A DNA stretch of 64,000 nucleotides from Candidatus Bipolaricaulota bacterium (GTDB lineage Bacteria > Bipolaricaulota > Bipolaricaulia > RBG-16-55-9 > DRXL01): assembly GCA_025060395.1 (NCBI GenBank), contig JANXCC010000007.1:3308-67307 (forward strand), given 5' to 3'. The notes beneath the pieces are model-generated. The model worked only from the letters and a program-made list of their open reading frames with translations. It was not told the origin of the DNA and searched no databases. Shown here piece by piece: positions 20,302 through 58,809 of the stretch; position 1 is the stretch's first letter; every line of letters starts with the position of its first letter. Position numbers and translations under genes: made by a program.

Positions 20302-23094
20302 CTACATTCCCCCTTGTACATCAAAATAGACCGTCGGCCCCGACTGGCCCTGCCCCTGCGCTAGCCCAACTCTTAACTCTATCGGTACTCTATACCCTAG
20401 CACGATCCTCAATCGCAACTCTCCCCCATAGCTGAAATGCGCTTCGTCCGACGTCAAAGGCTCGCCTGAAAGATATACCCCCTCTGCAAAGAGCGCTCCA
20501 TCTATCCGATCAAAGAAGACAGACCAGTGCCCTATCCCGTGTCCGATGTGCAAGATCGGAAAGACAAACTCCCAACCCGTGTAGATGACTTGCGTCGCTT
20601 TTCTGAAGTCTTTGGGAAAGCCCCGCAGCGACCAGAGCTCCCCAAGCCCGCCCACACTCAATGGCTCAAGATCGTCACGCGCTAAAACAGTGAGTCGACT
20701 CAAGCGATTCGCAAAACCTAACGGTAACTGAATGCTCTCGCGCTGCGCGACCTGAAAGAGCATTTTCCATAAATTGCGCTCCAGGACAAATTCGACAAAA
20801 AGCTCTACGTCTCGCCCGATACGCAAGAGATCGCTCCCACTCTCGAGCGACTCACGATAACGCACTGTGAACGACGGCATAAGCTGTCTGCCTTGGCACA
20901 CCTGTGCCCCAAATGCTAGTATCTGCTCTCGACCTACGACCCGTGAGGATGTCAGCTCGAGCTCCGCCCGCGCAACACTCTCAAACTCGGCAGTATGCTC
21001 CAGATGCACTGAAAGTCTAGGGCTGAGCGCGTTGATGGTCTCGGCGAACCAGCCTCGCTCTTTCACTGCCAACGCCACGGAGTAGTCAAACACCAACATC
21101 GGTTGCTGGGTAGGAAGATCAACCCCAGCATAGAGTGTATAGTTGTGATGCCTAAGCGGGTCGAACCCGACAAAGAGCACGGCAGGCTGCAGAGGATTGG
21201 GCACGGGCATCCACAGGCGTGGCGCTAAGAACTCTTCAGCACGATAGGGCTTTTCTGACAGAGACCCTGCACGCCAGCCGGGCCATTCTATAACGCTCGC
21301 GCGCGCAAACTGCACTGGCTTCCAACTTTGGGGATCGTAGTCCATCACGTGTAGCTCATAGCCCTTGGTGCTGTAGCTGATAAACGCAATCTTTGTCCCA
21401 TCGGGCGAGACTGCTGGCGCGAACGCGCCCGTCAGCAGATTCGTCACTTTAAAAAATTGTCCGTCGGAGACGCGATACGCATAGAGATTGTAGATGCCGT
21501 CGCGCTCGGAGCTGAAGAGAATATATTGACCATCGGGGGACCAGTCTGGGTCAAAGTCTCCGGCTTTGTCTTGGGTGAGAGCTGTCAGCGACGAGCCGTC
21601 TGCACTCAGCAGATAGAGATCTTGGTAGCCGCCCATCTTCCAGAGAGTCAGGGCAATCTGGGTGCCATCGGGGGAGATCGCGAATGAGTCTATCAGGGTC
21701 CCCTCAGGGAACTCATAGAACGGCACGGTTCTTTCGCTGTTTAGCTCGTAGATCGCAAGTATAGGAGCTTGGCCGTTGGGACGCTGCTGCGCAAAGAGAA
21801 TCTTTGTGCCGTTGGGGAAGAAGACGGGATTGTACGCACGAGCGCGCTCTGTTAATCGACGCTCTTCTTTCTTCTCTAAATCCCATAGATAGAGATCGGC
21901 GTAGAGATAGTGATTCTCGAAGATCTCGTGTCTAGTGTAGAGCACGGACTTGCCGTCGGGAGAGACGTGCGGGGCTGGAGCGAAGAACGGTGGTCTAAAG
22001 AAATCGAGTTCGAAGGGCACAACGAAGAGAAACTGTTCGTCCTTGCCGTCGGGAGTGATGCGTCGGACGGACGCTTCGCGAACTACGTCTTTGTGATAGT
22101 AATAGATAAATTTCCCGTCGGGCGCCCATGCCGGATCGTTGTGCCAATAGCTTAAGCGACTGATCTTGCGTGACTGCGTAACGCCCTCACTCTTGATTTT
22201 TTCGATCTGGGGCTCAAACTGGACCTTGAGCCAAGCGCGCCAAGCCCTTTCTAGCTCCTGAGCCGAGACACCAAGAGCTCTCTTGAAAACGTTCCCAAAA
22301 TCGTTGATCGTTCCCAAAGTCAAGAGAGGCCAGAGTGAATCAGCGTTGATCTCGTCGATCCTAGCAAATGCTTCGTCGCCATACGTTTCAGCGATGAAGC
22401 GGCCAAACCAAGCGCCCCAGTCGTGGGCGAGCATATATCCTGAGGGCCAATGGGGTGGATTGTAGCCGTAGCCGACGCCCATCTGAGCTAAGGGCGTAAA
22501 GCGATTCTCCAGCACTTCGGCTCGGAGGTACATGGCATCTCGTGCGGAGTTGGAGCGCGACGCGCCAGCTCGCTTCAATTCAAAATAGATGGGGATGCCT
22601 TCAATGATCGTACCAGGCTTGCTCGCGTTGGGGAGCGTGAGCAGCGGGCCGAGCCAGGGGCGCAGCTTCTCCGAAAGCCCCGAAACTTTCGTAATATCGA
22701 AGATATGCCCAATCTCGTGATATAAGACGTCTTCGAGCCAAGAGGGGTTTTGCGAGTTGAGCCATTCATTAAAGACACGAGCGTTGGAGACACTGGCGAT
22801 GACGTCTCCAAAGGGATTGGCCGCGCCCACGGCAAAGTCCGACGGATCAGCCAAGATAATATTAATCTTGAGGGGGACAGCGTATCTCAGCTCCTTCGCC
22901 CAGAACTGATACGCTTCTTCGCTAATGAGCGCAGCTTCTTGGGCAATCGCTTCTAGGCCCTCATGATAGATCACGTTGAAGTGCTCTGTTGTGAGCACAT
23001 ACCAATCGAGCGTGGGATCTAGGTCAAGAAACTGCGCCGACGTCGAGAGCCCGAACGTAAGCATAAGAATGAGACTACACACTATGAGACGCAT
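20302..23094 (-). CDS. secreted HExxH peptidase-like domain, PD40/TolB-type beta-propeller and Omp85-like C-terminal barrel
   Basis: The start MRLIVCSLILMLTFGLSTSAQ is at ATG 23094 after AAGGAGG. It has YHEIGH and the PD40 repeats SPDGKSVLY, SPDGTQIAL, SPDGQYILFSSERDG and SPDGTKIAFIS. The C-terminal ~300 aa carry LRGF and GGELRLRIVLGYRVPIELRVGLAQG. Confidence 0.7.
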   Translation of the reverse strand: MRLIVCSLILMLTFGLSTSAQFLDLDPTLDWYVLTTEHFNVIYHEGLEAIAQEAALISEEAYQFWAKELRYAVPLKINIILADPSDFAVGAANPFGDVIASVSNARVFNEWLNSQNPSWLEDVLYHEIGHIFDITKVSGLSEKLRPWLGPLLTLPNASKPGTIIEGIPIYFELKRAGASRSNSARDAMYLRAEVLENRFTPLAQMGVGYGYNPPHWPSGYMLAHDWGAWFGRFIAETYGDEAFARIDEINADSLWPLLTLGTINDFGNVFKRALGVSAQELERAWRAWLKVQFEPQIEKIKSEGVTQSRKISRLSYWHNDPAWAPDGKFIYYYHKDVVREASVRRITPDGKDEQFLFVVPFELDFFRPPFFAPAPHVSPDGKSVLYTRHEIFENHYLYADLYLWDLEKKEERRLTERARAYNPVFFPNGTKILFAQQRPNGQAPILAIYELNSERTVPFYEFPEGTLIDSFAISPDGTQIALTLWKMGGYQDLYLLSADGSSLTALTQDKAGDFDPDWSPDGQYILFSSERDGIYNLYAYRVSDGQFFKVTNLLTGAFAPAVSPDGTKIAFISYSTKGYELHVMDYDPQSWKPVQFARASVIEWPGWRAGSLSEKPYRAEEFLAPRLWMPVPNPLQPAVLFVGFDPLRHHNYTLYAGVDLPTQQPMLVFDYSVALAVKERGWFAETINALSPRLSVHLEHTAEFESVARAELELTSSRVVGREQILAFGAQVCQGRQLMPSFTVRYRESLESGSDLLRIGRDVELFVEFVLERNLWKMLFQVAQRESIQLPLGFANRLSRLTVLARDDLEPLSVGGLGELWSLRGFPKDFRKATQVIYTGWEFVFPILHIGHGIGHWSVFFDRIDGALFAEGVYLSGEPLTSDEAHFSYGGELRLRIVLGYRVPIELRVGLAQGQGQSGPTVYFDVQGGM

Positions 23095-23167
23095 CTTGGC
23101 CTCCTTGGATATGTGCATCACGGAAAGCATGAAAGCGATTTTATTCCTATACTTTCAGTAGTGTGCG

Positions 23168-23392: not shown

Positions 23393-24656
23393 GGTTGGCC
23401 TCCTTGGCCTCAACGCGACTCAATAATTTCCCTCGATATAATCGAATGATGACGCGCTCCCCTACGCGTACATGCTCAACCGAGGATACAGGTCGCCCCT
23501 CTTCGTCCTCCACAACGGAGAAGCCGCGCCGCAGCACGCTAATGGGATTGACGCTCTCCAAGTGCTGCATTAAGGTCTGCCATTGCTCTTGAAGGCGCGC
23601 CAGGCGCTGACGCATCGCGCGCAGCAATAGCTCCGACGCATGATCGAGCGACTGCTCATGCTCCCGCAGAAGCTGGATTGGTCTATGCAGCCCACGGCTG
23701 CGCCGCAGCATCTCCACCCGCAAACGATAGTTCTCAATACGCCCTAGGAGACGTTGCTCTAGCTGAGTTTGCGCACTTCGAGTGAATTCAAGAAGCTCCC
23801 TCTTGTCGGGGACGGCCATCTGAGCCGCGGCTGTGGGCGTGGGCGCGCGCACGTCCGCGACAAGATCCGAGATCGTTATATCGACTTCGTGCCCGACCGC
23901 GGAGATGATAGGAATACGGGACTCGAAAATCGCGCGGGCGACGGGCTCCTCGTTGAACGCCCATAAGTCTTCTATAGAGCCGCCACCGCGCGTGACGATC
24001 AGCGTGTCTATGGGCTCTCTCTCCAGAGCGTAGCGATTGGCGATACGGATCGCCGAGGCGATCTCTGCCGCAGCGCCCTCCCCCTGGACGCGCGTGGGAA
24101 AGAGCAACACTGTGACAAGGGGATATCGCTCACGCAAGATCTTCAGAATATCTCTGAGAGCCGCACCTTCAGGGGACGTGACGATCCCAATACGCTCTGG
24201 GAAGCGCGGGATGGGTTGCTTAAACCGCGCGTCGAAGAGCCCTTCAGTATGCAAGCGCTCTTTGAGCCTTTCAAACTCTAACTGCAGTTTGCCAACGCCC
24301 GCCGGGTGCATCTCCAAGACATCAATTTGATAGCGTCCCTTCCGTTCATAGAGCGTGATCTGCCCAAACGCGATGACCTTCTGACCGTCGGCAGGGGTGA
24401 ACTGCAAGAGTGCGTTCCGGTCAGCAAACATCACCGCGGCGATCTCAGCAGCCTCATCTTTGAGGGTGAAGTACATGTGCCCGTTGCGATGATGGGTAAA
24501 GTTGGAGATCTCGCCTTCAAGCCAGAGCGCGGGGATGCCCGCTTCGAGCAGATCGTGCACGACACGATTGAGCTGGCTGACAGTAAAGATCGGCGGAGCA
24601 GTCTCAGGCGGCTGCTGTCGAGCTGTCTCGGTGAAGAGGAATCGCATCTCGCTCAT
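23367..24656 (-). CDS. xseA: exodeoxyribonuclease VII large subunit
   Basis: 429 aa with an N-terminal OB fold (FTVSQLNRVVHDLLE...WLEGEISNF), the catalytic region (GIVTSPEGAALRDIL, RGGGSIEDLWAFN) and a coiled-coil tail. Confidence 0.9.
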   Translation of the reverse strand: MSEMRFLFTETARQQPPETAPPIFTVSQLNRVVHDLLEAGIPALWLEGEISNFTHHRNGHMYFTLKDEAAEIAAVMFADRNALLQFTPADGQKVIAFGQITLYERKGRYQIDVLEMHPAGVGKLQLEFERLKERLHTEGLFDARFKQPIPRFPERIGIVTSPEGAALRDILKILRERYPLVTVLLFPTRVQGEGAAAEIASAIRIANRYALEREPIDTLIVTRGGGSIEDLWAFNEEPVARAIFESRIPIISAVGHEVDITISDLVADVRAPTPTAAAQMAVPDKRELLEFTRSAQTQLEQRLLGRIENYRLRVEMLRRSRGLHRPIQLLREHEQSLDHASELLLRAMRQRLARLQEQWQTLMQHLESVNPISVLRRGFSVVEDEEGRPVSSVEHVRVGERVIIRLYRGKLLSRVEAKEANHGTAPSQD

Positions 24657-24693
24657 CGCTCTATCTTAGCGCGAGAGCGTCGTGGCGATCAAC

Positions 24694-25992
24694 TTAGAAC
24701 TTTACTCTGATTGAAGGGCTGACGTAGAGCAAATACTCTCGGCGCATTTGCGCTTCGAGGCTCGCCATCCAAGCCCATGTCCCAGGGCCCGCAAATCCCC
24801 AGCTCAGCTCGACTCTTTGATTGTAAAAGCCGTTGATCAAACCGCCCATGAATGCCGTCTGCGACCGAAATCTGAATGGATCAAACTCTGCAACGACCTC
24901 CAGCGTATGCATCAACCCTACAGGATCTTGAGCGACTATCTCGTCCCTGAAAGAGATCGCTCCCCACTGGACGAAGAAGCTCAAGCGCCTGGCAGGAAAG
25001 TGAAAGAATCCATTAGGATCGATAAATTCGATCTCGAAGACCCCTTCCCCTAGCTGCACCGTCCACCCAAAGCTCACAAAGGACGGCGTTGCTAGATCGT
25101 TGAGCACGATCTTCTGATAGACGACTACGCCCATCAGGGAGACCCGAAGCGAGAGAATGAGCTGCGAGAGCTCAATGGTCGTGAAGTCGAACGCAAGTTC
25201 TGCTCCTAGCGTTACTCCGGCGATCGTCACGTTTCTAATGATGAGCTTCTCTTCTTGGAAGCCGAGGCCGGGCACGACGCGGCCTTCAAAGGAGCGTTCA
25301 AAGGCTTTGCACTCGCCAAAGCACTCCCAACCTTGCCGAGCCCCGATATATGTCTGCATCATGACCTCAGCACCCCCAGGAGTGCGGCCCCCGGCCTCGA
25401 AGATAAGCCCGCTCTGAAAATCTGGGGTAGAGGCCGTCCCGAAATTTGCGACCAACATGGTGACCGTGAACCAGACGCCCCAGAGGTTGATCGACATTTG
25501 AGAGATAAGCTTTCTGAACTGTAAGGGCTCGTCGAGGGTGGGCGCCAGTAACTTCGAGAGATCTAGAGGCGAAGCCAGCTCGTCTATGAACATCCGTAGA
25601 GGGACACCGACTAACCCCGGATCGGGCTGAGCAAACCGAATCGTCCAGAAAGGGTCGTCATCGATCTCGAGAATATTAGGGGCGAAGATTACGACGTTTC
25701 TGAACGTGATTGCCATGCCCGCGTACATCTCGAGGGCCTGAAATTCTGCGCCCTTGAAGCTGAAGACGCTTGTGCTTGTGAGCGCAAGCCCGCTTACGTA
25801 TAGCCCTAGCTGAAGGATTGTCTCAGCGTCGACGTTGATCTGATCTATCTTAGTTTGACCAAAGGTGAGCGGCTCAAAGAAGATAGCCAGCTGAACCTCG
25901 CCGGAGATGGGCGCGGCCAAGCCCGTCGCTGGCTCCCAGCCCCAAGCCCCTAGCTGCGCAACAGCAATAGCGATAAGGAGCGCCCTCTTCAT
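24694..25992 (-). CDS. predicted outer-membrane beta-barrel protein (no family recognised)
   Basis: 432 aa with a signal peptide (MKRALLIAIAVAQLGAWG). It is beta-strand rich and ends ...YVSPSIRVKF (terminal Phe). Its start overlaps the upstream stop (ATGA). Confidence 0.5.
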   Translation of the reverse strand: MKRALLIAIAVAQLGAWGWEPATGLAAPISGEVQLAIFFEPLTFGQTKIDQINVDAETILQLGLYVSGLALTSTSVFSFKGAEFQALEMYAGMAITFRNVVIFAPNILEIDDDPFWTIRFAQPDPGLVGVPLRMFIDELASPLDLSKLLAPTLDEPLQFRKLISQMSINLWGVWFTVTMLVANFGTASTPDFQSGLIFEAGGRTPGGAEVMMQTYIGARQGWECFGECKAFERSFEGRVVPGLGFQEEKLIIRNVTIAGVTLGAELAFDFTTIELSQLILSLRVSLMGVVVYQKIVLNDLATPSFVSFGWTVQLGEGVFEIEFIDPNGFFHFPARRLSFFVQWGAISFRDEIVAQDPVGLMHTLEVVAEFDPFRFRSQTAFMGGLINGFYNQRVELSWGFAGPGTWAWMASLEAQMRREYLLYVSPSIRVKF

Positions 25993-26498
25993 GGTGCGAC
26001 GATCACCACCTGACCGGCTATGGGCGGACCGAGGGGAATAGGCTGCCCAACTCTATCGGTGAAGAGATCGATAGCTGTTATGGTGAGCGCGGTTTGTGCG
26101 CCCACAGAGCCTATGGCTTGGACACTCATCTCAATGATAGGGATTTGGAGTACCCCTAGCCCTGGAGCGACGATGGGCCGGATGCTTCCCCCAGAGAAGC
26201 TCGCCACAAACTGCACCCACCCCATCAGGTTATTGATCGTGCTCCCAAAGACAGTAAACCCGTTCACCCCAGTTAGCCCTGCCACTTGAATGACTGCAGG
26301 ATTGAACGTCAAGAATCCTCCAGGACCGACTTGGATGGTCTTGACATCTGGGGGATTCAGAACACTGATGCGAACAATTCCCGTTCCCCCGGAGGGCAGC
26401 TCGAGCGTACCTACTATAACCTGAGTACGATAAGATCCCTCGCAGCCCGTTATGAGCCCTAGCGCTATGATCAGGCCCACCAGCACTCTAGGCTTCAT
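25989..26498 (-). CDS. cohesin-like lipoprotein
   Basis: 169 aa with a lipobox (LGLITGC). Its single beta-sandwich pattern resembles cohesin modules (IQVGPGGFLTFNPAVIQVAGLTGVNGF...GWVQFVASFSG...LTITAIDLFTD). Its start overlaps the stop of the giant gene (ATGA). Confidence 0.5.
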   Translation of the reverse strand: MKPRVLVGLIIALGLITGCEGSYRTQVIVGTLELPSGGTGIVRISVLNPPDVKTIQVGPGGFLTFNPAVIQVAGLTGVNGFTVFGSTINNLMGWVQFVASFSGGSIRPIVAPGLGVLQIPIIEMSVQAIGSVGAQTALTITAIDLFTDRVGQPIPLGPPIAGQVVIVAP

Positions 26499-29400
26499 CG
26501 GAGGATCACCAGCTTCTGGATACGGCTATAGATGAGGGAACCGTCAGCCCCTCGCACCGTAACAACGTAGAGATAGACACCGTTTGCGAGCGTATCTGGG
26601 AACCAAGTCAGCTCTGAGCCTTGATGCCATCCACTTGTGAAGACGATCCTTCCAGCGAGGTTGAAGACCTGGACGTTCAAAGCTGCAATAGCTGTTCCGT
26701 GAGCGCGGAAGCGAATCGCTTGTCCGAGGGCTCGATGTTCAGCGCGCTCTAAGGTCACAGGAGCGTGTGACTGCAGAGGAGCCATCTCAGAAGCTCGGGC
26801 ATCCAACGGTGGGCAATAGCTCAGATAACCGCGGGCAATCTCGCTAATCCGAGTAACATCGCGAGCATCGAGCACACCAAATGGGGGGGCGACGTCGGCA
26901 GCAAGGCGTTGCGCTTCGGTGAGTTCGATAGCTCCTAGAATAGCTCGTGCGACGAGCTGCGCATCGGCTTCTTCGACAAGACCGCTGCTATCGACATCAC
27001 CGCAGAGCAAGAACGAACTTCCCAAAGCGATGACCGTCGCGTCGTTAGGCGTAGGAGTGCGGGGGTCATCGCTGTATTGGCCAGAGATGTTCGAACCGGA
27101 GATCTGGGCTTGGTTGGAGATCGTTAGGGTGTGAGGCGGGAGAGGATTATCAATCTGGACGCGGAAGCTCACGCGAGCTTGGCCTCCGAGAGCCCCCAAT
27201 GCCCCAAAGGCGACCTGAACGCCAGAGGCCCCCCCATGAGCCACACCTAGGCTGGCCTTAGGCGCTTCGTTGACAAGATATGTCTTGGGATCAGGCGTAT
27301 CGGCGAGCGTGAGATTTGAAGCGTCTCGAGTCCCAGCGTTGATGATTGTCAAGACATATTCGAGTATATCTCCGGGGGTGATGGTACCGCTTCGATCGGT
27401 GTCATAGACTAAGAAAGCGTCCTTGGTGAAGTATAGGAGCGGTGCAGCAGCCAGAGCGGTCTTCGTTGCATCCTTCTGCGCTGGGGTATCAGGATCGTCA
27501 CTAGTGATGCTGCCAACCCCAGGGACGTTGACAAGCACATGGTGGGAGATGCTAGAGACGCTTGACGGCAGAGGATCTCTGAGGACGACGTCAAACGAAA
27601 CCGCAGCCATCTCTCCTGGTGGGATTCTGTCTAACAGCACTCCCAGCGAACTGTCTCCTGAGGAGTTACCCGTCTGCACAGTCCCAACAGAAGCGCGCAC
27701 GCTCCCTACCACCAGGGTAGTATTGAGATCAGGGATAGCACTCAAAAAAGCGTTGATAGCTTCAGCGTTTCCGATATTCATGAGCAAGACATGATAGCCG
27801 AGGGTATCGCCAGGGCTAGGAAGGCCATCAAGATCGGCGTCGACTTTGAGAAAGTCTCTCATGAAGACCAACACATAGGGAAGCTGAGCGATGGCCGTGA
27901 GTGTTGGGTCATCGAGGGCTGGTGTTGCTGGATCATCGCTTACGAAGCTGGGGATGTTGTCACCACTCACGAGCACGCGATTGGCTACCGCGGTGATGCC
28001 GCTAGGCAGAGGGGAGTTTACCCCAACGCGGAACGTGATCGTCGCACTCTCGCCGTTGCCTGCTAGCGTGCCTAGGTTCACCTGTACGAATCTATCGTTT
28101 TCTGAGTTCCCCACTAGCACGGCACCTTGAGTGGTCGTCACACTCCCAATCACTAGGGTGACGTTCGGGTCCAAGCTATCGGATACGAGGACAGAGCCAG
28201 CATTCTCGCGACCCACGTTCGTCACCGTGATCGTATATTTGAGGATATCGCCGGGGCTAGGGATGCCGTTTTCATCTAGATCAGAAAAGATCGAGAACGT
28301 CTTGTAGACTCTCAGCAGCGGGGCCACGCTGAGGATGATCTCCGTAGGATCGTAGGGGATAGGCGTCGCCGGATCATCTGTAGGTTCGTCGGGGCGCTCG
28401 TTGCTAGAGACCAGTCCATGAGCGCGAATGCTGAGGACTCCTGGAGGAAGCGAGGGCTTCAAGCGTACTCGGAACTGAACCGTTGCCGACGCCTTTGGGG
28501 CGAGAGTTGTCCATTCGACGCGCACTTGTGACCCCATGGATGACGATATCGTGCCTTCGCTCGCGTTGATGCTATTAGCAACGAGATCAGTATAGGGATC
28601 TAGCATACCCCGGAAGACAACCCCTGTAGCGGCGACCGACCCTCTGTTAGCGATCGTTGCTGAGTACTCTATAGTGTCACCGGGGCTCGCGCCTAAGGGG
28701 GGGATGTCTTCGACGAGAGAGGCCGTAAGAACAGCTTGGAGCTGCGGGCCCTGAGGAGTGGCTCCAACGGTCGTTGTGAGAGACGCGGCATTATTGGCAG
28801 TGTTGCTCTCAGGGGAGTTTGTTATCGCTTGGGCGACTGTGGTGAGCTTAGTACCTGTGGGTACAGAACTGAGCACAGTGACTTGGAGGCTCAGCGAGCC
28901 GCCTTGGCCTGCCGCCAGCGATCCAATCGAGAATGTCACTGTCTGATCAGCGTTGCTTGTCGGTATCTTGCTGGCGCTCACTACTCGAGTCCCTTCAGGG
29001 AGGGTAAGAGTAATCTGCAGGTCCTCAGCGACTGACGGTCCAGCATTATGATAGTTTATAATAAGATTCAAAGAGCCTCCTGGGAGCACGGTCGTCGGTC
29101 CAGAGAGCGATAGCTCTACATCCGCCACACTGTTAACACACGTTGTATCCGAAGCGACAATGGAGTTTGAACTTACAGTCCCTTGAGCGGTATTGCAGAT
29201 GGTATCAGCTGAAGTAGCTGTAGCTTGGAAGCTCACGGTGCCAGCGAGATTCTGCCCTGGGAGAATGGCCTCAAGGATGACCCAGCGGAGGGCATTCACG
29301 CTTGCTGGAGAGGACGGCTCCGTTGCGACAAACGTTGCACCTCCATCGGTAGACCAGAGCGTCAAGCAAGGAGCGCTGCACGTTGCACTTCCTTGAACAT

Positions 29401-30490
29401 AAGTGATCTCTGCCGGGAGGATATTCGTGATCACGATGTTATTTCCCGAAGCGGGATCGCCTATAGGAGCGCCGCCGGTGTTGCCGTAAGCAAAAGAGTA
29501 TGTAATGACTGTCCCGGGAACGGCAGCCGATGGGGTGGCAGAAGCATCGAGGACGAGGTTACCGAGGGTCTCGCGCACTTGAATAGTGATCTTCAGTGCG
29601 CCCAGGTCAGCGTTAAACTTATGTCCACTGCCTGAGGCTGCTTGTTGATAGGGCTGGAGCGTCGTCACACAGTTTCGTAGCCCGATGAACGTATACTTCA
29701 CATAGTCAGATGGGTTGCGCACATAATTTGGCGGCGGATTATGAGAACCAATCCCTGAGAAATAGATCTGGTCTTGATAGGGTGTTGCTCTGATGCTCTG
29801 GAGCGCGACTTCGGTGCGGACGAGACGCAAGCACGTGGGATCGAAGCTAGGGTTGCTGACGGGCTGGAGCCAGACGTCCTCGACGGCCTCAGGACCGGCT
29901 CCGATGGCGCCCAAATCAAAACCCCTGATCGTGATCGTGACGAGCTGGCCAATGCCGATCTGGCCGGAACTGGGCTCTAGGGTCACCGAGCCATCGGCGG
30001 CCAAGATCTTGCTCGAGCTCAGTGCAGATGCGCTGTGGGTCTGCAAAGTGGCGCTCTTCGTCGCGCCGCAACTGCCTTCCGAGATCGCCCACACCACATA
30101 CGGATATGAGATATTGATCGTATTGGGGTAGACGACATGCCAGTAGAGAGTTCGGGTTACTCCAGCGGGAAGGTTCCCCAAGAAGCGAGTCGCTTCGCTG
30201 GGGGAGCCAAGCATGTGTAAGCTCTGCCCGCTAACCTCGTCAAAGACTCCTGGGATGGTGCCATTCCCAAGGAAGACTGTGACGTTCTCGAGCACTGTTG
30301 AGCCGGTGTTCTGCACCCTTGCTGAGAGCGTAGCGACCCTTGGCCCCTCCGCAGCGACGAGCGCGAACGGACTGGACGTGATCGTGATCTTCAGCGAACA
30401 GCTGGCGTAGACGACCCGGTTTGAGATCGCACCAGACACGAAGAGAGAGAACACACCGGCTAGGACCAGCAAGCAGATCTGTCGGCGCAT
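26495..30490 (-). CDS. giant secreted repeat protein: DUF11-type repeats, dockerin and an Ig-like sorting-type C-terminal domain
   Basis: 1331 aa with a signal peptide and at least five DUF11-like repeats (PGDTIEYSATIANRGS, PGDILKYTITVTNVGR, PGDTLGYHVLLMNIGN, PGDILEYVLTIINAGT). Its dockerin-like pair is GDVDSSGLVEEADAQLVARAILG / ADVAPPFGVLDARDVTRISEIARG. The C-terminus reads VQVFNLAGRIVF...LANGVYLYVVTV. Confidence 0.75.
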   Translation of the reverse strand: MRRQICLLVLAGVFSLFVSGAISNRVVYASCSLKITITSSPFALVAAEGPRVATLSARVQNTGSTVLENVTVFLGNGTIPGVFDEVSGQSLHMLGSPSEATRFLGNLPAGVTRTLYWHVVYPNTINISYPYVVWAISEGSCGATKSATLQTHSASALSSSKILAADGSVTLEPSSGQIGIGQLVTITIRGFDLGAIGAGPEAVEDVWLQPVSNPSFDPTCLRLVRTEVALQSIRATPYQDQIYFSGIGSHNPPPNYVRNPSDYVKYTFIGLRNCVTTLQPYQQAASGSGHKFNADLGALKITIQVRETLGNLVLDASATPSAAVPGTVITYSFAYGNTGGAPIGDPASGNNIVITNILPAEITYVQGSATCSAPCLTLWSTDGGATFVATEPSSPASVNALRWVILEAILPGQNLAGTVSFQATATSADTICNTAQGTVSSNSIVASDTTCVNSVADVELSLSGPTTVLPGGSLNLIINYHNAGPSVAEDLQITLTLPEGTRVVSASKIPTSNADQTVTFSIGSLAAGQGGSLSLQVTVLSSVPTGTKLTTVAQAITNSPESNTANNAASLTTTVGATPQGPQLQAVLTASLVEDIPPLGASPGDTIEYSATIANRGSVAATGVVFRGMLDPYTDLVANSINASEGTISSSMGSQVRVEWTTLAPKASATVQFRVRLKPSLPPGVLSIRAHGLVSSNERPDEPTDDPATPIPYDPTEIILSVAPLLRVYKTFSIFSDLDENGIPSPGDILKYTITVTNVGRENAGSVLVSDSLDPNVTLVIGSVTTTQGAVLVGNSENDRFVQVNLGTLAGNGESATITFRVGVNSPLPSGITAVANRVLVSGDNIPSFVSDDPATPALDDPTLTAIAQLPYVLVFMRDFLKVDADLDGLPSPGDTLGYHVLLMNIGNAEAINAFLSAIPDLNTTLVVGSVRASVGTVQTGNSSGDSSLGVLLDRIPPGEMAAVSFDVVLRDPLPSSVSSISHHVLVNVPGVGSITSDDPDTPAQKDATKTALAAAPLLYFTKDAFLVYDTDRSGTITPGDILEYVLTIINAGTRDASNLTLADTPDPKTYLVNEAPKASLGVAHGGASGVQVAFGALGALGGQARVSFRVQIDNPLPPHTLTISNQAQISGSNISGQYSDDPRTPTPNDATVIALGSSFLLCGDVDSSGLVEEADAQLVARAILGAIELTEAQRLAADVAPPFGVLDARDVTRISEIARGYLSYCPPLDARASEMAPLQSHAPVTLERAEHRALGQAIRFRAHGTAIAALNVQVFNLAGRIVFTSGWHQGSELTWFPDTLANGVYLYVVTVRGADGSLIYSRIQKLVILR

Positions 30491-30739
30491 AGCACCTCAC
30501 TGTACAGTGTCGCAGCTCACTCGTGCTGCGGTGCTGCACAGCAGCACCGTTACACCGATTGTACGACTTAGCGGGCTAGGGAACGGTGTCTGAGGTCTAG
30601 GCGCGGGTGCCACTTCTTCCGCCAGTTAATGGACGGATGGGGTGGGATCAGGCAGACAAGGGTCCTACGTTGCATCACAGCAGGTACGGAGCGACTTGAT
30701 TTGGTACAATTAAAATAAATCTTGGGGGGTGAGCATACT

Positions 30740-30955
30740 ATGGGCGAATTGATCTTTGCGCTAATCATCTTGCTGAGCACGGTGATTGGGTTTATTGGAT
30801 TGGGGTACATGGTCTTTTCGCCGCCGACGGCGCCGAAGGTCTTTCTCATCGCAGGGATTATTGCGATGATCGGGTTTTTTGGGTATGCGGTCTCGCGCGT
30901 GCGCGCAGAGAGACGAGCGCAGAGCACCAACAATCCTGGGGAACGGAAGAGCTGA
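30740..30955 (+). CDS. small two-TM membrane protein
   Basis: ATG 30740 follows GGGGGTGAG. The 71-aa product reads MGELIFALIILLSTVIGFIGLGYMVF...IAGIIAMIGFFGYAV. Confidence 0.45.
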   Translation: MGELIFALIILLSTVIGFIGLGYMVFSPPTAPKVFLIAGIIAMIGFFGYAVSRVRAERRAQSTNNPGERKS

Positions 30956-31049
30956 GATCCCGCTCAAGTCCCTTCATCTTCGGCGTCTTTGTCGCACAAT
31001 TTGTCGTGAACGATGGTCGCAACTGTCACCCTCCTTTGCTAGGGTATAA

Positions 31050-32573
31050 TTATCGTCCTCGCAACAAGTACTTTTGAATCTTCCCTGACGCGGTCTTGGG
31101 CAGCTCTTTGACAAACTCGATCTCTCGCGGATGCTTGTACGCGGCTAACTCTCTGAGACAGTGCTGGCGGATCTCTTCCGCTAACGCTTCTGAGGGTTCA
31201 TAGCCAGCCTTGAGCACAATGTACGCTTTGACCGTCTCGCCCTTGCGCTCGTCGGGAATCCCCACGACAGCACACTCCGCAACAGCGGGATGTTCGTATA
31301 GAACGTGCTCGACTTCCTTAGGGAAAACTTTCACTCCCCCAACGTTGATCATATCTTTGACACGATCGACTATATAGTAATAGCCCTCTTCGTCAACATA
31401 CGCTAAATCCCCGGTGTGGAAGAAGCCCTCTTCGTCAATAGCTTGGCGCGTCGCTTCAGGATTGTTGTGATAGCCCTTCATCACCATGGGGCCACGCACG
31501 CACAGCTCTCCGACTTGTCCCACGGGAAGCTGTCTATTATTTTCATCAACGATCTTGCACTCGGCGCCCTCGATGGGCCAGCCAATCGAGCCGATCTTGG
31601 GCCTGGGCGCCGCTAAGTTCGTATGCGTCACCGGCGAGGTCTCGGTCAGTCCGTAGCCTTCGTAAACAGTGATGCCAAGCTTCTTCTGCATCGCTTCGAT
31701 GACGGGCACGGGCATCTTCGCGCCCCCAGAGCTGCAGAGCCTAAGCGAACTGAGATCGTACTGCGTGACTTTAGGATGATTTAACAGATCGATATAGAGT
31801 GTGGGAACGCAGACCATGCTCGTGATCTTATGCTCTTGGATAAGCTGCATCGCGTGTTCAGCGTCCCAACGGAGCATGGGGTAGATAGTCACGCCCATCG
31901 AGAGCGGGCTGAGCATGAGCACGGTCATCCCCGTGATATGAAACATTGGAATGGGCACCAGCAAGCGTTCGCCTGCGCCCTTGGCTTGCATTAGTTTCAT
32001 CACGGCTTGGATGTTACTGCTTAAATTTTTATGAGTAAGCAAGACACCCTTGGGTTTGCCCGTCGTCCCCGACGTGTAGGGCATAAGCGCAAGATCGTCA
32101 TCGTCGCGCTCTACAAACGTCGGGGGATGCTTCAGCAGTTCGTCAAAATTTGGGTACGCCGAGCCAGGGCCAACGACAAAGACTTTCAGATCGGGAAGCT
32201 CTTCGGCAGCTTTAGCGACTTCTTCAAGCATGAAGACCGGAGCGATAATCAGCTTCGCCCCAGAATCTGTGATCTGATGGATGATCTCCCGCTTTTTGAG
32301 CGTGGGGTTCATAGGAGTGGGAACACATCCGGCTTTGAACCCACCCCAGATCGCGATCACAAATTGAGGCAGATTGGGTAGATAGACAGCAAAACGATCT
32401 CCAGGGGCAAGCCCGAGGGCTTTTAGACCTCCGGCGAATCGGCTTGTCAGCTCAGCAAGCTCTTTGTAGGAGATCGCCCGCGAGGGCACAGCGTTGGGGA
32501 TGCCAGGGAAATAGACAGCCGTTCTCTCTGAGTGCTGTTGCGCAGCGTGGTCAAAGAGATGCGCGACGTTCAT
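31050..32573 (-). CDS. long-chain fatty-acid--CoA ligase (AMP-binding enzyme)
   Basis: 507 aa with the AMP-binding motif YTSGTTGKPKGV, plus GYGLTE, TGD and a C-terminal ...PKTASGKIQK. Confidence 0.85.
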   Translation of the reverse strand: MNVAHLFDHAAQQHSERTAVYFPGIPNAVPSRAISYKELAELTSRFAGGLKALGLAPGDRFAVYLPNLPQFVIAIWGGFKAGCVPTPMNPTLKKREIIHQITDSGAKLIIAPVFMLEEVAKAAEELPDLKVFVVGPGSAYPNFDELLKHPPTFVERDDDDLALMPYTSGTTGKPKGVLLTHKNLSSNIQAVMKLMQAKGAGERLLVPIPMFHITGMTVLMLSPLSMGVTIYPMLRWDAEHAMQLIQEHKITSMVCVPTLYIDLLNHPKVTQYDLSSLRLCSSGGAKMPVPVIEAMQKKLGITVYEGYGLTETSPVTHTNLAAPRPKIGSIGWPIEGAECKIVDENNRQLPVGQVGELCVRGPMVMKGYHNNPEATRQAIDEEGFFHTGDLAYVDEEGYYYIVDRVKDMINVGGVKVFPKEVEHVLYEHPAVAECAVVGIPDERKGETVKAYIVLKAGYEPSEALAEEIRQHCLRELAAYKHPREIEFVKELPKTASGKIQKYLLRGR

Positions 32574-54339: not shown

Positions 54340-54717
54340 ATGTGTGGGCGCGTGTTGACAGCGAGGGCAGGGATGAGACCAGAGCGCCAGCTCAGTCCAG
54401 AGGAACGGTTCTCTGAACTAGTCTTGATCCGAGAGAAGGAGCAAGAGATCAAGCGTCGCCTTGAGGCGGCGCGCGCCCGTGCGGAGGAGCAGCTTGCTCA
54501 GGCCCGTAAGCGCGCCGCGCAGCTCAAGTCCCAAGCCAGGCAAGAGCTGCACCGGGAGCTAGAGCGACGCCGCGCGGAGGCTCAGGCTGCCTACGAGGCC
54601 GAAGCCCAGCGGATCCTCGCCGAAGGCCGTGCTCGCGCGCAACAGGTCTTCGAGCGTGTCCAAGCACACATGGCCCATCTATTTGAAAAACTCCGCCGCG
54701 AGCTCTTCCTCGAGTGA
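54340..54717 (+). CDS. V/A-type ATPase peripheral-stalk subunit (G/H-like coiled coil)
   Basis: 125-aa Arg/Glu/Ala-rich helix (EKEQEIKRRLEAARARAEEQLAQARKRAAQLK...). It is the first gene of the operon, as in the Thermus atp cluster, and its stop overlaps the next start (GTGA). Confidence 0.5.
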   Translation: MCGRVLTARAGMRPERQLSPEERFSELVLIREKEQEIKRRLEAARARAEEQLAQARKRAAQLKSQARQELHRELERRRAEAQAAYEAEAQRILAEGRARAQQVFERVQAHMAHLFEKLRRELFLE

Positions 54718-56552
54718 CGACCATGCAGCGCCGCATGACCCGTGTCTACGTGATCTCCTCGCAGCACCGGCGGGACGAGCTGGTGCGAGCCCTTCAGAGA
54801 CTGGGGGTCCTTCACATCGACCCGGTGCAGCTGACAGATCGCCCCACTTCTTCCCAGGAGCTGAGCGCCGAGCGCCACGACGCAGAAGTCCTCCTCTTGC
54901 AGGTCCGCGGGCTACGCGACCTGCTAGCACCCCCGCCTGATATTCCGGCGCCAACTTATGCAAGACTCGATCTAGCACAAACGCGGGAGCACCTCCAGAG
55001 GCTTGAGGAGCAGGTGCGTTCGGCCATCGTCGAGCGCCGCCAGCTCCAGGAGCGGCTGGAAGCAGCAACGAGCCTCAAATATATCCTCGACGCTACACAA
55101 GCTCTGCTGCAAGAGATCGCCACGCCCCCCAGTCACGAGCTGATCATAGGACTGGGCAGCAGCCCTCTCTCTCCGGAGGAGATCGCACAATTTTTAGAAC
55201 AGACCCTGCCAGGGCGATGCGTCGTCCGCCTCCATGCCTTACCTGCAGATCGCTGGGAGCTGGTGGTGAGCGTCGACGCTCTCTATGCTGCAGCGGTGCG
55301 TGAGTATCTAGGAGCCAAAGGGGTGCGCCCCTTAGCGCTCCCCGCCCATATCCCCAGTAATCTAAGCTTGGCCGAAGCTATCGCTCACTTACAGCGTGAT
55401 CTCAAGGAGGCTCCGATCCGCCTCCGCGAGATCGACGCGAAGCTCCACGAGCTGGGGCAGGCTCATGGGGCGGAACTGCTCGCCCTAGAACGCGCTCTGG
55501 TCAATAGAATTGCCCAGCTTGATGCGATGGCCCGCTTCGGCTACACCGCCTATGCCCTCGTGATCTCCGGCTGGATTCCCCACGAAGAGTTCGAGCCTTT
55601 TGCTCGCAGGCTCCAGGAGCAATTCCCTGAAGTGATCGTGCGCGAGGACCCGCAGCCCGCCCCCCCTCACGAGATCCCCGTAGCGCTCCACAATAATAGC
55701 TGGAGCCGACCCTATGAGCTCTTCTTGTCTATCATGGGGATGCCCAAGTACGGCACGATCGATCCTGTGCCGTTTATCAGCTTCTTCTTCCCGCTCTTTT
55801 TTGGGATCATCGTAGGCGATATAGGCTACGGCGCTGTCATTGGGCTCTTGGGGTTCTGGCTGCGTCGGCGTTTTGCTCACTCTAATATAGTGCGGCAAGC
55901 AAGCCAGATCGTGATCCACTGCGCCTTCTCTACAATAGTCTTTGGAGCGATCTTCGCCGAGCTCTTTGGGTTTATCTTGCCGTACCCCCATCTGAAGCGT
56001 GGCGAGCAGACCAACGCTCTGTTGCTCTTCACCGTTGCGTTAGGGGCGACTCAGATTCTCCTGGGCTTTCTGCTTGGGGCGATCAACGCATTCAGGGAGC
56101 GCCATAACAAACATGCGCTGGCGAAGCTCGCCGCCATCGGCGCTCTGCTCGGCCTGGGGCTGACCATCGGCGCGCTTGCCGGACAGCTCCCTGACGCCCT
56201 CAAGACCCCAAGCTTTGCGCTCCTGGCTGCAGCCATGGTGCTCTTGGTGCTGAGCGAGGGCTTCTTAGGGGTTCTAGAATTAGTCAGCTACGTCGGCAAT
56301 ATTATCTCCTATGCCCGGCTGATGGGCTTTGGCTTAGTGGGGCTGAAGATCGCGGAGGTGATCAATGAGCTGGGACATGCGTTGCATAATATCTTCTTAG
56401 CGGTGCTGATTGGGATTGCAGCCCATGCCGCGAATCTAGGGCTGGCCATCTTTGAAGCGACAGTGCAGTCGGCACGATTGCACTACGTCGAGTTCTTTGG
56501 GAAATTCTTAGAGTTGGGCGGCCGCAAGTACGAGCCGTTCCGAGAGATTTAA
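54714..56552 (+). CDS. atpI: V-type ATP synthase subunit I
   Basis: 612 aa with a soluble coiled N-half, about 7 TM helices in the C-half and a conserved Arg region (ISYARLMGFGL). Confidence 0.85.
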   Translation: MTTMQRRMTRVYVISSQHRRDELVRALQRLGVLHIDPVQLTDRPTSSQELSAERHDAEVLLLQVRGLRDLLAPPPDIPAPTYARLDLAQTREHLQRLEEQVRSAIVERRQLQERLEAATSLKYILDATQALLQEIATPPSHELIIGLGSSPLSPEEIAQFLEQTLPGRCVVRLHALPADRWELVVSVDALYAAAVREYLGAKGVRPLALPAHIPSNLSLAEAIAHLQRDLKEAPIRLREIDAKLHELGQAHGAELLALERALVNRIAQLDAMARFGYTAYALVISGWIPHEEFEPFARRLQEQFPEVIVREDPQPAPPHEIPVALHNNSWSRPYELFLSIMGMPKYGTIDPVPFISFFFPLFFGIIVGDIGYGAVIGLLGFWLRRRFAHSNIVRQASQIVIHCAFSTIVFGAIFAELFGFILPYPHLKRGEQTNALLLFTVALGATQILLGFLLGAINAFRERHNKHALAKLAAIGALLGLGLTIGALAGQLPDALKTPSFALLAAAMVLLVLSEGFLGVLELVSYVGNIISYARLMGFGLVGLKIAEVINELGHALHNIFLAVLIGIAAHAANLGLAIFEATVQSARLHYVEFFGKFLELGGRKYEPFREI

Positions 56553-56574
56553 CCACACCACGAAAGGAGACCAT

Positions 56575-56880
56575 ATGAAGAGACTCGCACTAGCTGTTCT
56601 TATCTTCAATGTGATCGTAGTCGGGGCATGCTTTGGAGGGTTGGCTCAAGAGCTTGCACAGGATGCGGAAAGCCCGCTCGTTGCAGGGCTGAAGACAATC
56701 GCCGCAGCGATTGCCTTCGCGTCAGGGGCGTTTGCCACGGCGTGGGTACAGACGCGCGTCGGCCCGGCAGCCATGGCCGCAGTAGCCGAAAACCGCGAGA
56801 ATTTCTTCAGTGCGTTGGTCTTAGTCGCGCTGCCGGAGACGCTCGTCGTCTTCGGGTTCGTCGTGATATTCTTGCTGTGA
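56575..56880 (+). CDS. atpK: V-type ATP synthase subunit K (proteolipid)
   Basis: 101 aa with a two-helix hairpin carrying a carboxylate in the second helix (LVALPETLVVFGFVV). Confidence 0.8.
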   Translation: MKRLALAVLIFNVIVVGACFGGLAQELAQDAESPLVAGLKTIAAAIAFASGAFATAWVQTRVGPAAMAAVAENRENFFSALVLVALPETLVVFGFVVIFLL

Positions 56881-56881
56881 T

Positions 56882-57448
56882 ATGGAGCTGCTACGTCAGA
56901 TCGAAGCGGAGGGCGAGCGCCAAGTTCAAGAGCTCTTAGCTCAAGCAGAGAGGCAAGCTCAAGAGATCCTAGCACAGGCGGAGCACGAGATCGCCCAAGA
57001 GCGCGAGCGTGCTCTCAAAGAACTTGAAGCACAAGTGGATCGAGAGCGCCAAGCGGCGCTTAGCCGCGCCCACTCCCAAGCTCGCGCAGAGCTCCTCAAA
57101 GCGAAGAACTCCGTAGCAGAGGCGCTCTTCGAGAGGCTCGCTCAAGAGATGGCCCAGCTCCGCTCCGATCCGGCACGATATAGAAGATTTCTAGAGAGAT
57201 GCCTGCGCGAAGTCGAGCAGGCCATTCCAGGGCCGCTTGTCGTTCGCGCCGCGCCAGAAGATCAGAAGCTTCTTCGCGAGTTGCTCGCGGGGACGCAACA
57301 TACCCTGGGCGATCCTGTCAAGACCGTGGGCGGGATCTTGGCCCTCAATGAGCGCGGCGATCTTGTCGTAGATAATCGCTTAGAGACGCGCTTAGCTAAC
57401 CTCCAAGCACGCTATCGCCTCGAAATCGGGCGAGCGCTCGCAGCGTAG
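56882..57448 (+). CDS. atpE: V-type ATP synthase subunit E
   Basis: 188 aa with a long N-terminal helix (ELLRQIEAEGERQVQELLAQAERQAQEIL...) and a globular C-terminus, in the expected operon position. Confidence 0.75.
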   Translation: MELLRQIEAEGERQVQELLAQAERQAQEILAQAEHEIAQERERALKELEAQVDRERQAALSRAHSQARAELLKAKNSVAEALFERLAQEMAQLRSDPARYRRFLERCLREVEQAIPGPLVVRAAPEDQKLLRELLAGTQHTLGDPVKTVGGILALNERGDLVVDNRLETRLANLQARYRLEIGRALAA

Positions 57449-57450
57449 CT

Positions 57451-58503: not shown

Positions 58504-58805
58504 AGCCGATCATCGTGGCTCCTCCGGATCTTGCCGACGGCTTTCGTCTGGCAGGGGTGGCGGTCTTCGAGATCACAGCTCACCATGAGATTGATCAGAT
58601 CGTTGAGCGGATCCGTGCCATGCCTGAGGTCGGCTTAGTCTTGGTGGACGAGCGCTTCATGGAAGGCTTTGAGCGCGCGTTAGGTGGGGGCGAGCTGCCC
58701 ATGCTAGCGTCCTTCCCCGCCGCAGAAGTCGCTCGCGAAGAGACGTACATCGACGAACTGACAAAACGGTTTCTCGGACAGAAGATCTACATCGAGGGAG
58801 CGTGA
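58500..58805 (+). CDS. atpF: V-type ATP synthase subunit F
   Basis: 101 aa with MKPIIVAPPDLADGFRLAGV... and overlapping start/stop codons with its neighbours. Confidence 0.75.
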   Translation: MKPIIVAPPDLADGFRLAGVAVFEITAHHEIDQIVERIRAMPEVGLVLVDERFMEGFERALGGGELPMLASFPAAEVAREETYIDELTKRFLGQKIYIEGA

Positions 58806-58809
58806 GCCT

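Follow-up and report, generated by a model that had tools for sequence, protein, structure and literature searches.

The stretch analysed here, hereafter the window, is a 64,000-nucleotide segment of contig JANXCC010000007.1 (assembly GCA_025060395.1) from a Candidatus Bipolaricaulota bacterium. Its minus strand carries a three-gene operon for a giant protein, a small lipoprotein and a barrel protein, all of which are annotated as hypothetical in public records. The original prediction, made from the sequence without database searches, had described three open reading frames (ORFs) of 1331, 169 and 432 amino acids joined by ATGA overlaps, and had suggested that together they make a cohesin-dockerin anchoring device for a giant surface protein. 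The three ORFs and both overlaps were found exactly so. Related loci are referred to below by numbers beginning with L.

26495..30490, minus strand: giant protein gene, 1331 amino acids, an ORF with orthologues in all loci of the same type (type A, below)
26495..26498, minus strand: ATGA stop/start overlap of the giant gene and the cohesin gene
25989..26498, minus strand: lipoprotein gene, 169 amino acids, with lipobox LITG-C19 and a single cohesin domain (residues ~24-169)
25989..25992, minus strand: ATGA stop/start overlap of the cohesin gene and the barrel gene
24694..25992, minus strand: barrel gene, 432 amino acids, Omp-beta family, with a signal peptide (residues ~1-26) and a terminal Phe

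At both junctions the TGA stop shares bases with the next ATG. The giant/cohesin junction at 26498-26495 reads ...CTC CGA TGA / ATG AAG CCT (CGATGAAGCC) and the cohesin/barrel junction at 25992-25989 reads ...GCA CCA TGA / ATG AAG AGG (CCATGAAGAGG). Both are kept in 17 of 17 orthologous loci from other genomes and metagenomes, at protein identities down to about 50%. This is far beyond chance, and the translational coupling is thus a conserved feature of these genes rather than a coincidence. The boundaries of the operon were set by gene spacing alone: 37 bp separate it from xseA, and the spacing on its upstream side is about 560 bp. A promoter and terminator scan of positions 24300-31200 found sites no more frequently than in shuffled sequence.

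Homologues of the 169-aa and 432-aa proteins all belong to Candidatus Bipolaricaulota (Acetothermia, OP1), including some metagenome-assembled genomes (MAGs) labelled Fraserbacteria or Thermotogae by their submitters. The Bipolaricaulota are atypical diderms with a Thermotoga-like toga and a split OmpM-like tether whose parts are Omp-alpha and Omp-beta (bioRxiv 10.1101/2021.05.31.446380). In the first cultured isolate, the toga is covered by a hexagonal S-layer (bioRxiv 10.1101/2025.11.21.689855). One closed Acetothermia genome is reported to lack lipopolysaccharide (LPS) genes, and neither adhesins and pili nor outer-membrane secretion systems were recognised in it (PMC6092417). A literature search found no description of cohesins or dockerins in this phylum.

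The three proteins and their domains

The giant protein can be divided into five parts, the last of which is a C-terminal domain (CTD) of the kind that serves as a sorting signal in secretion by the type IX system (T9SS).

30404..30490, minus strand: Sec signal peptide, residues 1-29 (MRRQICLLVLAGVFSLFVSGAISNRVVYA), read from the translation by its basic n-region, hydrophobic core and VYA cleavage-type motif
29561..30403, minus strand: N-terminal head of about 280 amino acids, residues 30-310, specific to this operon type by orthologue conservation
27014..29548, minus strand: stalk of six CLIPPER/DUF11-type Ig-like units, from a jackhmmer search with one unit as query, Pfam and TIGR01451
26807..27010, minus strand: dockerin, residues 1161-1228, between Cys1163 and Cys1226, from profile A4 against the PDB
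26498..26740, minus strand: T9SS-type sorting-like Ig domain (CTD), residues 1251-1331 (81 residues), with the motif NGVYLY, from profile A5 against the PDB

The head is conserved in all of the orthologous giants (jackhmmer E 1e-135 to 1e-167). It has no sequence match in Pfam, NCBIfam or the PDB, and no S-layer homology (SLH) or peptidoglycan-binding signature was found in the Pfam and PDB sequence searches. The DUF11-type repeats of the original prediction are well supported, the giant matching DUF11/CLIPPER (PF01345) at 123.6 bits against a cut-off of 24.6. It also matches DUF7619, DUF7927 and DUF7507 in Pfam and TIGR01451 in NCBIfam (108.6 bits). With a single unit as the jackhmmer query, the six units were delimited at residues 315-457, 462-580, 598-725, 735-872, 883-1018 and 1028-1159. 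DUF11 has since been renamed CLIPPER, a CnaA-like stalk domain typical of fibrillar adhesins (PMC12617251).

Both segments of the dockerin-like module that had been read from the sequence are present. A profile built from 11 orthologous modules (A4) matches about 28 dockerin chains of known structure, including 8x39_A (E 8e-16), 2ccl_B (E 3.5e-9, positions 4-59) and 4uyp_B (E 7.5e-9). The single sequence also finds 8x39_A (E 9e-5) and the Xyn10B dockerin 2ccl_B (E 9e-4). The first loop (DVDSSGLVEEAD) is canonical, with acidic or polar ligands at positions 1, 3, 5 and 12, and the second, despite its non-canonical form, has a consensus (DVAPPFGxLDxRD) that is invariant across the orthologues. 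The module is bracketed by a conserved Cys at position -1 and another near its C-terminus. Other dockerins carry an 'intramolecular clasp' at the equivalent positions (PMC3821032) and, by analogy, a disulfide between the two Cys probably clasps the dockerin termini together here.

In one MAG (L019:765-1936) a frameshifted beta-helix ORF just upstream of the operon leads into a fully canonical dockerin. This is followed by a hydrophobic helix with a basic tail and then by an in-frame lipobox (LSILTGC) with a domain that resembles a cohesin by eye. The domain of this second lipoprotein-like ORF is not significantly similar to the alignment of the operon lipoprotein (A1; hhalign 3.5%). What lies upstream here may represent another cohesin-dockerin pair, or the remains of one.

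The Ig-like tail with NGVYLY, predicted to be of the T9SS type, is present. A profile of 16 CTD sequences (A5) matches the CTD of PorZ (5m11_A residues 698-739, E 6.5e-6) and that of PorU (6za2_A, E 0.014). On CHU_C (PF13585), the CTD of the L001 orthologue reaches 26.3 bits against a cut-off of 27, and related metagenomic CTDs clear this cut-off at 30.4, 30.5 and 28.3 bits. The matches to PorZ and PorU, with relatives above the CHU_C cut-off, indicate that the tail of the giant is homologous to T9SS sorting domains.

In the lipoprotein, the predicted lipobox ends in ...GLITG-C19. At least 90% of 22 homologues share Cys19, and the EGSY that follows it is conserved as well. An AlphaFold2 (AF2) model made from the 22-sequence alignment is all-beta (pLDDT 79.9, pTM 0.71). 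When this model was compared to the PDB with Foldseek, the top 50 of 50 matches were cohesins of types I, II and III and of non-cellulosomal kinds, with 66 matches at E <= 1e-3, E values down to 4e-8, template-modelling (TM) scores to the target of up to 0.77 and root-mean-square deviations (rmsd) of 2.5-2.6. They include 3ul4_A (TM 0.77), 4dh2_A, 2zf9 and 2xdh.

Direct searches did not reach this family. The lipoprotein has no Pfam (including Cohesin, PF00963) or NCBIfam match at E <= 1 and no PDB match as a single sequence, and profile A1 found only noise in the PDB (PsaL, E ~1). Whether the query was the single sequence or a profile to which the L003 internal cohesin described below had been added, database searches returned only Bipolaricaulota proteins and no bridge to canonical cohesins. 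Such a bridge was found in metagenomic loci that carry the CTD. Domains at L121:2262-3548, L063:8094-9425 and L065:1336-1910 pass the PF00963 cut-off of 24.1 (40.2, 34.1 and 38.1 bits, respectively) and are also found by the hidden Markov model (HMM) of the lipoprotein (59.5, 44.5 and 46.5 bits). In hhalign, A1 aligns with the L121 cohesin domain at a probability of 98.5% (E 4e-15, 37% identity over 123 columns). Because of this bridge to domains that pass the Pfam model, the 169-aa lipoprotein is a genuine, divergent cohesin, as had been predicted from its single domain; fold prediction and transitive homology agree on this.

The L003 giant (L003:613-6834, residues ~1844-1949) and the giants of L044 and L045 have a cohesin of their own between dockerin and CTD, which aligns as a homologue of the lipoprotein cohesin (hhalign 96.7%, E 3e-10). 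Fibres of this clade, having two cohesins for each dockerin, could chain or stack. No further cohesin is present in the 64-kb window, and the window giant and most of its orthologues have no internal cohesin.

The prediction that the third protein, ending in ...SIRVKF, is a barrel is supported by its AF2 model (pLDDT 82.3, pTM 0.72), which has about 24 long antiparallel strands, a helical insert at residues 132-153 and a terminal Phe. This residue, Phe432, is invariant. The structures that Foldseek matched to the model are all barrels, either of the outer membrane or of the VDAC transmembrane type (ushers, Occ porins, TonB-dependent receptors, VDAC), and their TM scores of 0.3-0.47 point to no more than a large barrel of generic kind. 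Among these matches are such general porins as Occ, the Rhodobacter porin and OmpU/T. Identity as an usher was rejected: although ushers head the list, their TM scores are 0.3-0.45 with rmsd > 12, no usher or chaperone Pfam domains are found and there is no chaperone gene in the operon. Neither is there a match to a PorP/SprF model in Pfam or NCBIfam, even at E <= 1.

Neither the barrel nor its paralogues could be placed in a Pfam or NCBIfam family at E <= 1, one noise match aside. When the barrel profile was run exhaustively with HMMER against 1.84 billion representatives, it gave only 130 clusters, and no cluster carried a name or a Pfam family. In L025, L026 and L042 a gene encoding an SLH domain (PF00395, 28.5 bits), a coiled-coil and a C-terminal transmembrane segment stands directly upstream of three tandem barrel genes, and the window barrel is 33% identical to an L025 barrel over residues 18-398 (E 8e-46).

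25306..25344, minus strand: invariant GARQGWECFGECK motif of the barrel, with twin cysteines C224 and C228, from alignment A2
L025:5936-11392, L026:5849-11482 and L042:481-6082: Omp-alpha-like gene and three tandem barrels of the Omp-beta family

The GARQGWECFGECK motif with its CxxxC is invariant in orthologues and paralogues of all three barrel subfamilies (alignment A2) and was selected as the search pattern for the family. Because its paralogues directly follow an SLH/coiled-coil Omp-alpha-like gene, the gene order that bioRxiv 10.1101/2021.05.31.446380 gives for Omp-alpha/Omp-beta in this phylum, the window barrel belongs, by homology, to the Omp-beta family as a diverged paralogue of this split OmpM-like component. 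No SLH gene adjoins the window barrel, or any other barrel of type A or type B.

Distribution of the operon and of its parts

In type A, as mapped by genome survey and HMMs, the genes for giant, cohesin and barrel follow one another as they do in the window. In type B, a 27-38% identical barrel comes directly before a CLIPPER giant that has one or two CTDs, and there is no dockerin and no cohesin gene nearby; the exception is L036, where the barrel adjoins a 657-aa beta-helix CTD protein without a CLIPPER match. In type C, three barrels stand in tandem with no fibre gene.

Besides the window, the trio is found at L001/L021, L002, L003/L004, L009, L010, L012, L013, L015-L020, L022, L023, L044, L045 and L046-L054. 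Together they give at least 20 non-identical loci, taken from Bipolaricaulota genomes and metagenomes that are distinct from one another, and cohesin identity among them falls to 48-50%; the three genes therefore co-occur in relatives as the original prediction expects. The flanking genes vary, with xseAB in the window and L001, a flavin reductase gene in L003 and L044, and an ABC transporter in L045, so the trio is inherited as a unit. It has been seen only in Bipolaricaulota.

In type A, each giant carries a dockerin and has a cohesin lipoprotein encoded next to it. Both are absent from 9 of 9 type-B loci (L005, L032, L033, L035, L036, L039, L040, L043 and L118). A CTD protein adjoins the barrel in all type-B loci and in all type-A loci with enough flank, excepting L011. 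This locus was not counted either way; a 100-N gap (L011:7942-8042) lies upstream of its genes for cohesin and barrel, and the failure to detect a giant gene there is probably an assembly artefact rather than a real loss. The adjacency of barrel and CTD giant arose in two barrel subfamilies. Since type-B barrels pair with CTD giants in the absence of dockerin and cohesin, the barrel and CTD fibre look like the core of the system, to which cohesin and dockerin were added as a lock.

In the type-B locus L005, the giant is followed by a gene (L005:16465-17118) for a 217-aa lipoprotein with an LSGC lipobox and weak CBM_4_9/DUF3047-like similarity, which is not a cohesin. A different small lipoprotein may accompany the barrel subfamily of this locus.

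The CTD has a much wider use than the operon. A metagenome scan with a 6-sequence CTD alignment fetched loci by CTD rather than by barrel, and these hold many CTD-tagged proteins without an adjacent barrel, often in tandem. Among them are an alpha/beta-hydrolase that also has PKD domains, a subtilase of the fervidolysin kind bearing a single DUF11 unit, and beta-helix proteins. By tetranucleotide correlation, which is weak taxonomic evidence, the CTD contigs L083, L085 and L113 are close to Bipolaricaulota (r 0.94-0.96); others are clearly unlike this phylum, for example a 3.2-Mb contig of 46-47% GC. CTD proteins without an adjacent barrel argue that the barrel is not a general CTD receptor. 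If the compositional assignment holds, the CTD would be a general tag in the phylum and the barrels of the giants specialised partners, much as for the type-B CTD cargo of the T9SS.

Two genes in L061 (229-3417 and 7090-10278), a locus of Bipolaricaulota-like composition (r 0.91), encode S8 subtilases, again fervidolysin-like, that bear this CTD together with one DUF11/CLIPPER unit, which suggests that the CTD also tags secreted enzymes. Proteins that combine dockerin, cohesin and CTD, or cohesin, PKD and CTD, occur in L062, L064, L067, L073, L080 and L086, and in L063, L065 and L121, often as tandem arrays. They come from other metagenomic organisms, in part not Bipolaricaulota, such as that of the 3.2-Mb contig. 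This suggests that cohesin-dockerin networks on CTD-sorted surface proteins extend well beyond cellulosomes.

A proposed anchoring module and its alternatives

The interpretation preferred here, with a probability of roughly 0.55, is that the operon encodes a dedicated surface-display and anchoring module that fastens a fibre to the outer membrane, or toga. The giant would be a Sec-exported fibrillar protein with a distal head, a stalk of six CLIPPER units and, at what would be its cell-proximal end, the dockerin, a 22-residue linker and the CTD. The barrel would serve as membrane platform and as cognate partner of the CTD, which would bind it as type-B CTD adhesins bind PorP/SprF. The lipid-anchored cohesin would clamp the neighbouring dockerin in a Ca2+-dependent, mechanically strong bond, so that the base of the fibre would be held at two points, CTD to barrel and dockerin to cohesin. 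The 1:1:1 coupling of the genes may reflect a stoichiometric three-protein complex in the toga, in which the lipoprotein may be held by the barrel or threaded through it, and the head would project some 25-30 nm outward on the CLIPPER stalk. The fibre could cross the outer membrane either through this large barrel or by a general CTD pathway encoded elsewhere.

Support for such a module comes from the identities of its components, the ATGA coupling in 17 of 17 loci, the presence of the trio in at least 20 loci and the joint presence of dockerin and cohesin. The adjacency of barrel and CTD giant mirrors the linkage and binding of type-B CTD cargo and PorP/SprF barrels. The phylum has a diderm envelope and a toga, on which the one cultured isolate bears an S-layer, and fibrillar adhesins typically have stalks of CLIPPER units. 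Cell-adhesion cohesin-dockerin bonds are reported to be among the most force-resistant protein complexes known (PMC7456326), which fits a stalk of stabilised Ig domains.

Several observations weigh against this interpretation. The window dockerin scores 19.8-20.0 bits on Pfam Dockerin_1 (PF00404), and its L001 orthologue 21.8, both short of the cut-off of 22.9. Its second loop (DVAPPFGVLDARD) lacks canonical Ca2+ ligands, with Ala and Pro at positions 3 and 5, and is one residue longer. The window CTD likewise falls below the cut-offs of TIGR04183 (17.9 against 23), CHU_C (15.3 against 27) and Por_Secre_tail (PF18962; 12.5 against 27). No match to the T9SS core (SprA/Sov, PorK/L/M/N, PorV, PorU) or to other export machinery was found among the scanned ORFs of the 64-kb window and the flanks of related loci. 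Types A and B are clades, so the co-occurrence of dockerin and cohesin amounts to one or two evolutionary events and not to about 30. The barrel family includes ordinary Omp-beta copies beside Omp-alpha with no fibre gene near, and CTD proteins without an adjacent barrel occur on contigs that are Bipolaricaulota-like, as assigned by composition only. The pairing of this cohesin with this dockerin is proposed from their co-occurrence and domain identity, and the interpretation depends on a presumed surface, rather than periplasmic, placement of lipoprotein and fibre.

The device had originally been described as self-contained. This term is too strong, given that the barrel is an Omp-beta paralogue and the CTD tags many proteins without an adjacent barrel. 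For the same reasons the device probably plugs into a wider CTD pathway.

It is unlikely that the barrel is instead a dedicated export pore for the fibre, resembling ushers or TpsB, to which the CTD would direct the giant; in this case the folding of CLIPPER domains outside the cell would drive translocation and the cohesin would only retain the finished fibre. The barrel is predicted to be large, with about 22-24 strands and a helical insert that could plug it, and its best Foldseek matches include the 24-strand ushers FimD and PapC. No other secretion genes were seen in the operon or among the scanned window ORFs, and the barrel always adjoins giant CTD proteins in two subfamilies. However, the TM scores to ushers (0.3-0.45) are low and the usher plug, N- and C-domains are all missing, as is a chaperone gene. 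Other members of the barrel family are porin-type Omp-beta proteins encoded beside an SLH tether, and other CTD proteins have no such barrel.

The fibre might also stay in the periplasm as a strut or tether between the toga, with its barrel and lipoprotein, and the cell body, and so substitute for Omp-alpha in function. The giant's CLIPPER stalk, its dockerin and its T9SS-type CTD are each hallmarks of extracellular proteins, the same CTD is found on hydrolases, subtilases and beta-helix proteins that resemble exoproteins, and the head has no SLH or peptidoglycan-binding signature, all of which makes this quite unlikely. On the other side, the barrel is a paralogue of Omp-beta, whose canonical partner is the periplasmic SLH/coiled-coil Omp-alpha, and six Ig-like units could span a widened periplasm. 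The three proteins would then need nothing beyond Sec and lipoprotein processing, which fits the closed Acetothermia genome without an outer-membrane secretion system.

Improbable, too, is an arrangement in which the lipoprotein serves the barrel, as an LptE-like plug or assembly factor, and the dockerin binds another cohesin, such as those inside the giants of L003, L044 and L045, linking fibres to one another. The homology of these internal cohesins to the lipoprotein, the many dockerin, cohesin and CTD proteins in other metagenomic organisms, which suggest chaining networks, and the second dockerin gene that adjoins the operon in one genome would all be in keeping with it. Yet the window giant and most orthologues have no internal cohesin, and the 64-kb window no other cohesin. 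Lipoprotein cohesin and dockerin agree exactly in where they occur and where they are missing, and type-B barrels function without such a lipoprotein.

That the adjacency has no mechanistic meaning, the barrel being an ordinary porin co-transcribed with envelope genes, is very improbable, for in spite of the Foldseek matches to general porins and the tandem triplets of paralogues without a fibre gene, all 17 of 17 loci keep the ATGA coupling, the trio travels as a block from one genomic context to another and a second barrel subfamily independently adjoins CTD giants.

A more far-reaching reading is that the T9SS-type CTD and the Omp-beta-family barrel form a T9SS-independent route, not recognised before, for export, anchoring or both on the LPS-free toga of deep-branching Terrabacteria. 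This is doubtful as it stands. If true, the Bacteroidota logic of CTD cargo plus cognate barrel would have an ancient relative outside the Fibrobacterota-Chlorobiota-Bacteroidota (FCB) group, reinforced here by a cohesin-dockerin lock.

Relation to known systems and genomic surroundings

Each part of the operon has a known counterpart: non-cellulosomal cohesin-dockerin pairs, CTD cargo with a cognate barrel, Omp-alpha/Omp-beta and CLIPPER adhesins have all been described. The cohesin and dockerin resemble cellulosomal and non-cellulosomal anchoring pairs (OlpA/OlpC of C. thermocellum, ScaE of R. flavefaciens, 2xdh of Archaeoglobus fulgidus) in that there is one envelope-tethered cohesin and that a two-segment EF-hand-type dockerin ends the protein to be anchored, as judged from structures and the profile match. 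They also share dockerin termini held together as in the intramolecular clasp (PMC3821032), here probably by a disulfide. Unlike in those pairs, the operon belongs to a diderm, anchoring is through a lipid-modified Cys and not through an SLH domain or sortase signal, and the cargo is a CLIPPER fibre rather than an enzyme or scaffoldin, with no carbohydrate-active enzymes among the scanned ORFs nearby. A coupled outer-membrane barrel gene, a T9SS-type CTD after the dockerin, a non-canonical second Ca2+ loop and a lipoprotein that reaches no Pfam or PDB cohesin by direct sequence search further set the operon apart.

In the T9SS, cargo with a type-B CTD often shows genetic linkage to its cognate PorP/SprF barrel, which binds the cargo and keeps it on the surface (PMC9143113, PMC12618676). 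The operon is like SprB-SprF of Flavobacterium and PG1035-PorP of Porphyromonas in encoding a giant repetitive CTD adhesin beside its own outer-membrane barrel. The twin cysteines of SprF form functional disulfides with a periplasmic partner (PMC12635249); the window barrel family has twin cysteines as well, in its invariant CxxxC, but in mid-sequence and not in a C-terminal tail. The T9SS is described in the literature as specific to Bacteroidota or the FCB superphylum. In contrast to the PorP/SprF systems, the operon is from a phylum outside the FCB group with no T9SS core gene among the scanned ORFs (64 kb inspected), its barrel is larger and of the Omp-beta family, and it has an extra cohesin-dockerin pair.

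With Omp-alpha/Omp-beta, the split OmpM-like tether of Thermotogota, Bipolaricaulota and Fraserbacteria, the operon shares a barrel that is homologous to those in the Omp-beta position at three loci. It differs in that the window barrel has no SLH partner gene, its partners being the cohesin lipoprotein and the CTD fibre, and in that this barrel, with 432 aa against 480-555 aa, is the shorter protein and makes up an orthologous group of its own. For Candidatus Stygibacter (Cloacimonadota), an uncultured diderm, a cellulosome-like system of cohesin and dockerin modules with a T9SS-type CTD for attachment has been proposed (PMC8542988). There a multi-cohesin scaffoldin bears the CTD and enzymes bear the dockerins, whereas here there is one lipoprotein cohesin, a dockerin on a non-enzymatic fibre and a coupled barrel. 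The order of signal peptide, distal head, tandem CLIPPER stalk and C-terminal anchoring module is that of CLIPPER fibrillar adhesins (PMC12617251). Among the sorting and anchor domains in the quoted passage of this survey (an OmpA-like anchor, archaeosortase-type C-terminal signals), a module such as the dockerin and CTD found here, with dedicated cohesin and barrel genes, does not appear.

It is the combination of these known parts in one translationally coupled operon that is new. Also new are a cohesin that is a lipoprotein of a diderm, the recruitment of an Omp-beta paralogue to a fibre, and the occurrence of a T9SS-type CTD in a phylum outside the FCB group. The parts have strong precedents (a mechanically ultrastable cohesin-dockerin bond, isopeptide-type stalk domains and a CTD/barrel pair), and are here combined anew in a distant phylum. 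For the LPS-free toga diderms (Thermotogota, Bipolaricaulota), the operon offers a concrete three-protein module by which proteins could be placed and retained on the outer sheath. A fold and a family are now assigned to two families of 'hypothetical protein', the Omp-beta barrels are seen to have diversified into fibre-associated subfamilies, and lipoprotein-anchored cohesins are extended to diderms. As a thermostable, self-contained pair, this cohesin and dockerin may be useful in surface-display engineering. The first isolate of the phylum (bioRxiv 10.1101/2025.11.21.689855) makes the model experimentally accessible, if it carries the operon.

The neighbours of the operon and the largest ORFs of the window, which are those that were scanned, encode housekeeping functions: xseA/xseB, IF-2, a ychF-like GTPase, an acyl-CoA ligase, priA, dnaX, uvrC and a V-type ATPase. 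No carbohydrate-active enzymes are among them, in agreement with the original prediction. Two genes downstream of the operon, past xseA and xseB, the window has a gene (20302-23130, minus strand) for a 942-aa signal-peptide protein with a HEIGH zinc-protease-like motif and PD40 repeats. Its synteny is kept in L001, where the counterpart has 933 aa and Tricorn_N-type domains, and a Tricorn_N/PD40 gene also adjoins the type-B locus L005. The other notable operon of the window (54714-61937, plus strand) is a V/A-type ATPase cluster with subunit I and the A and B catalytic subunits, which is ordinary for the lineage.

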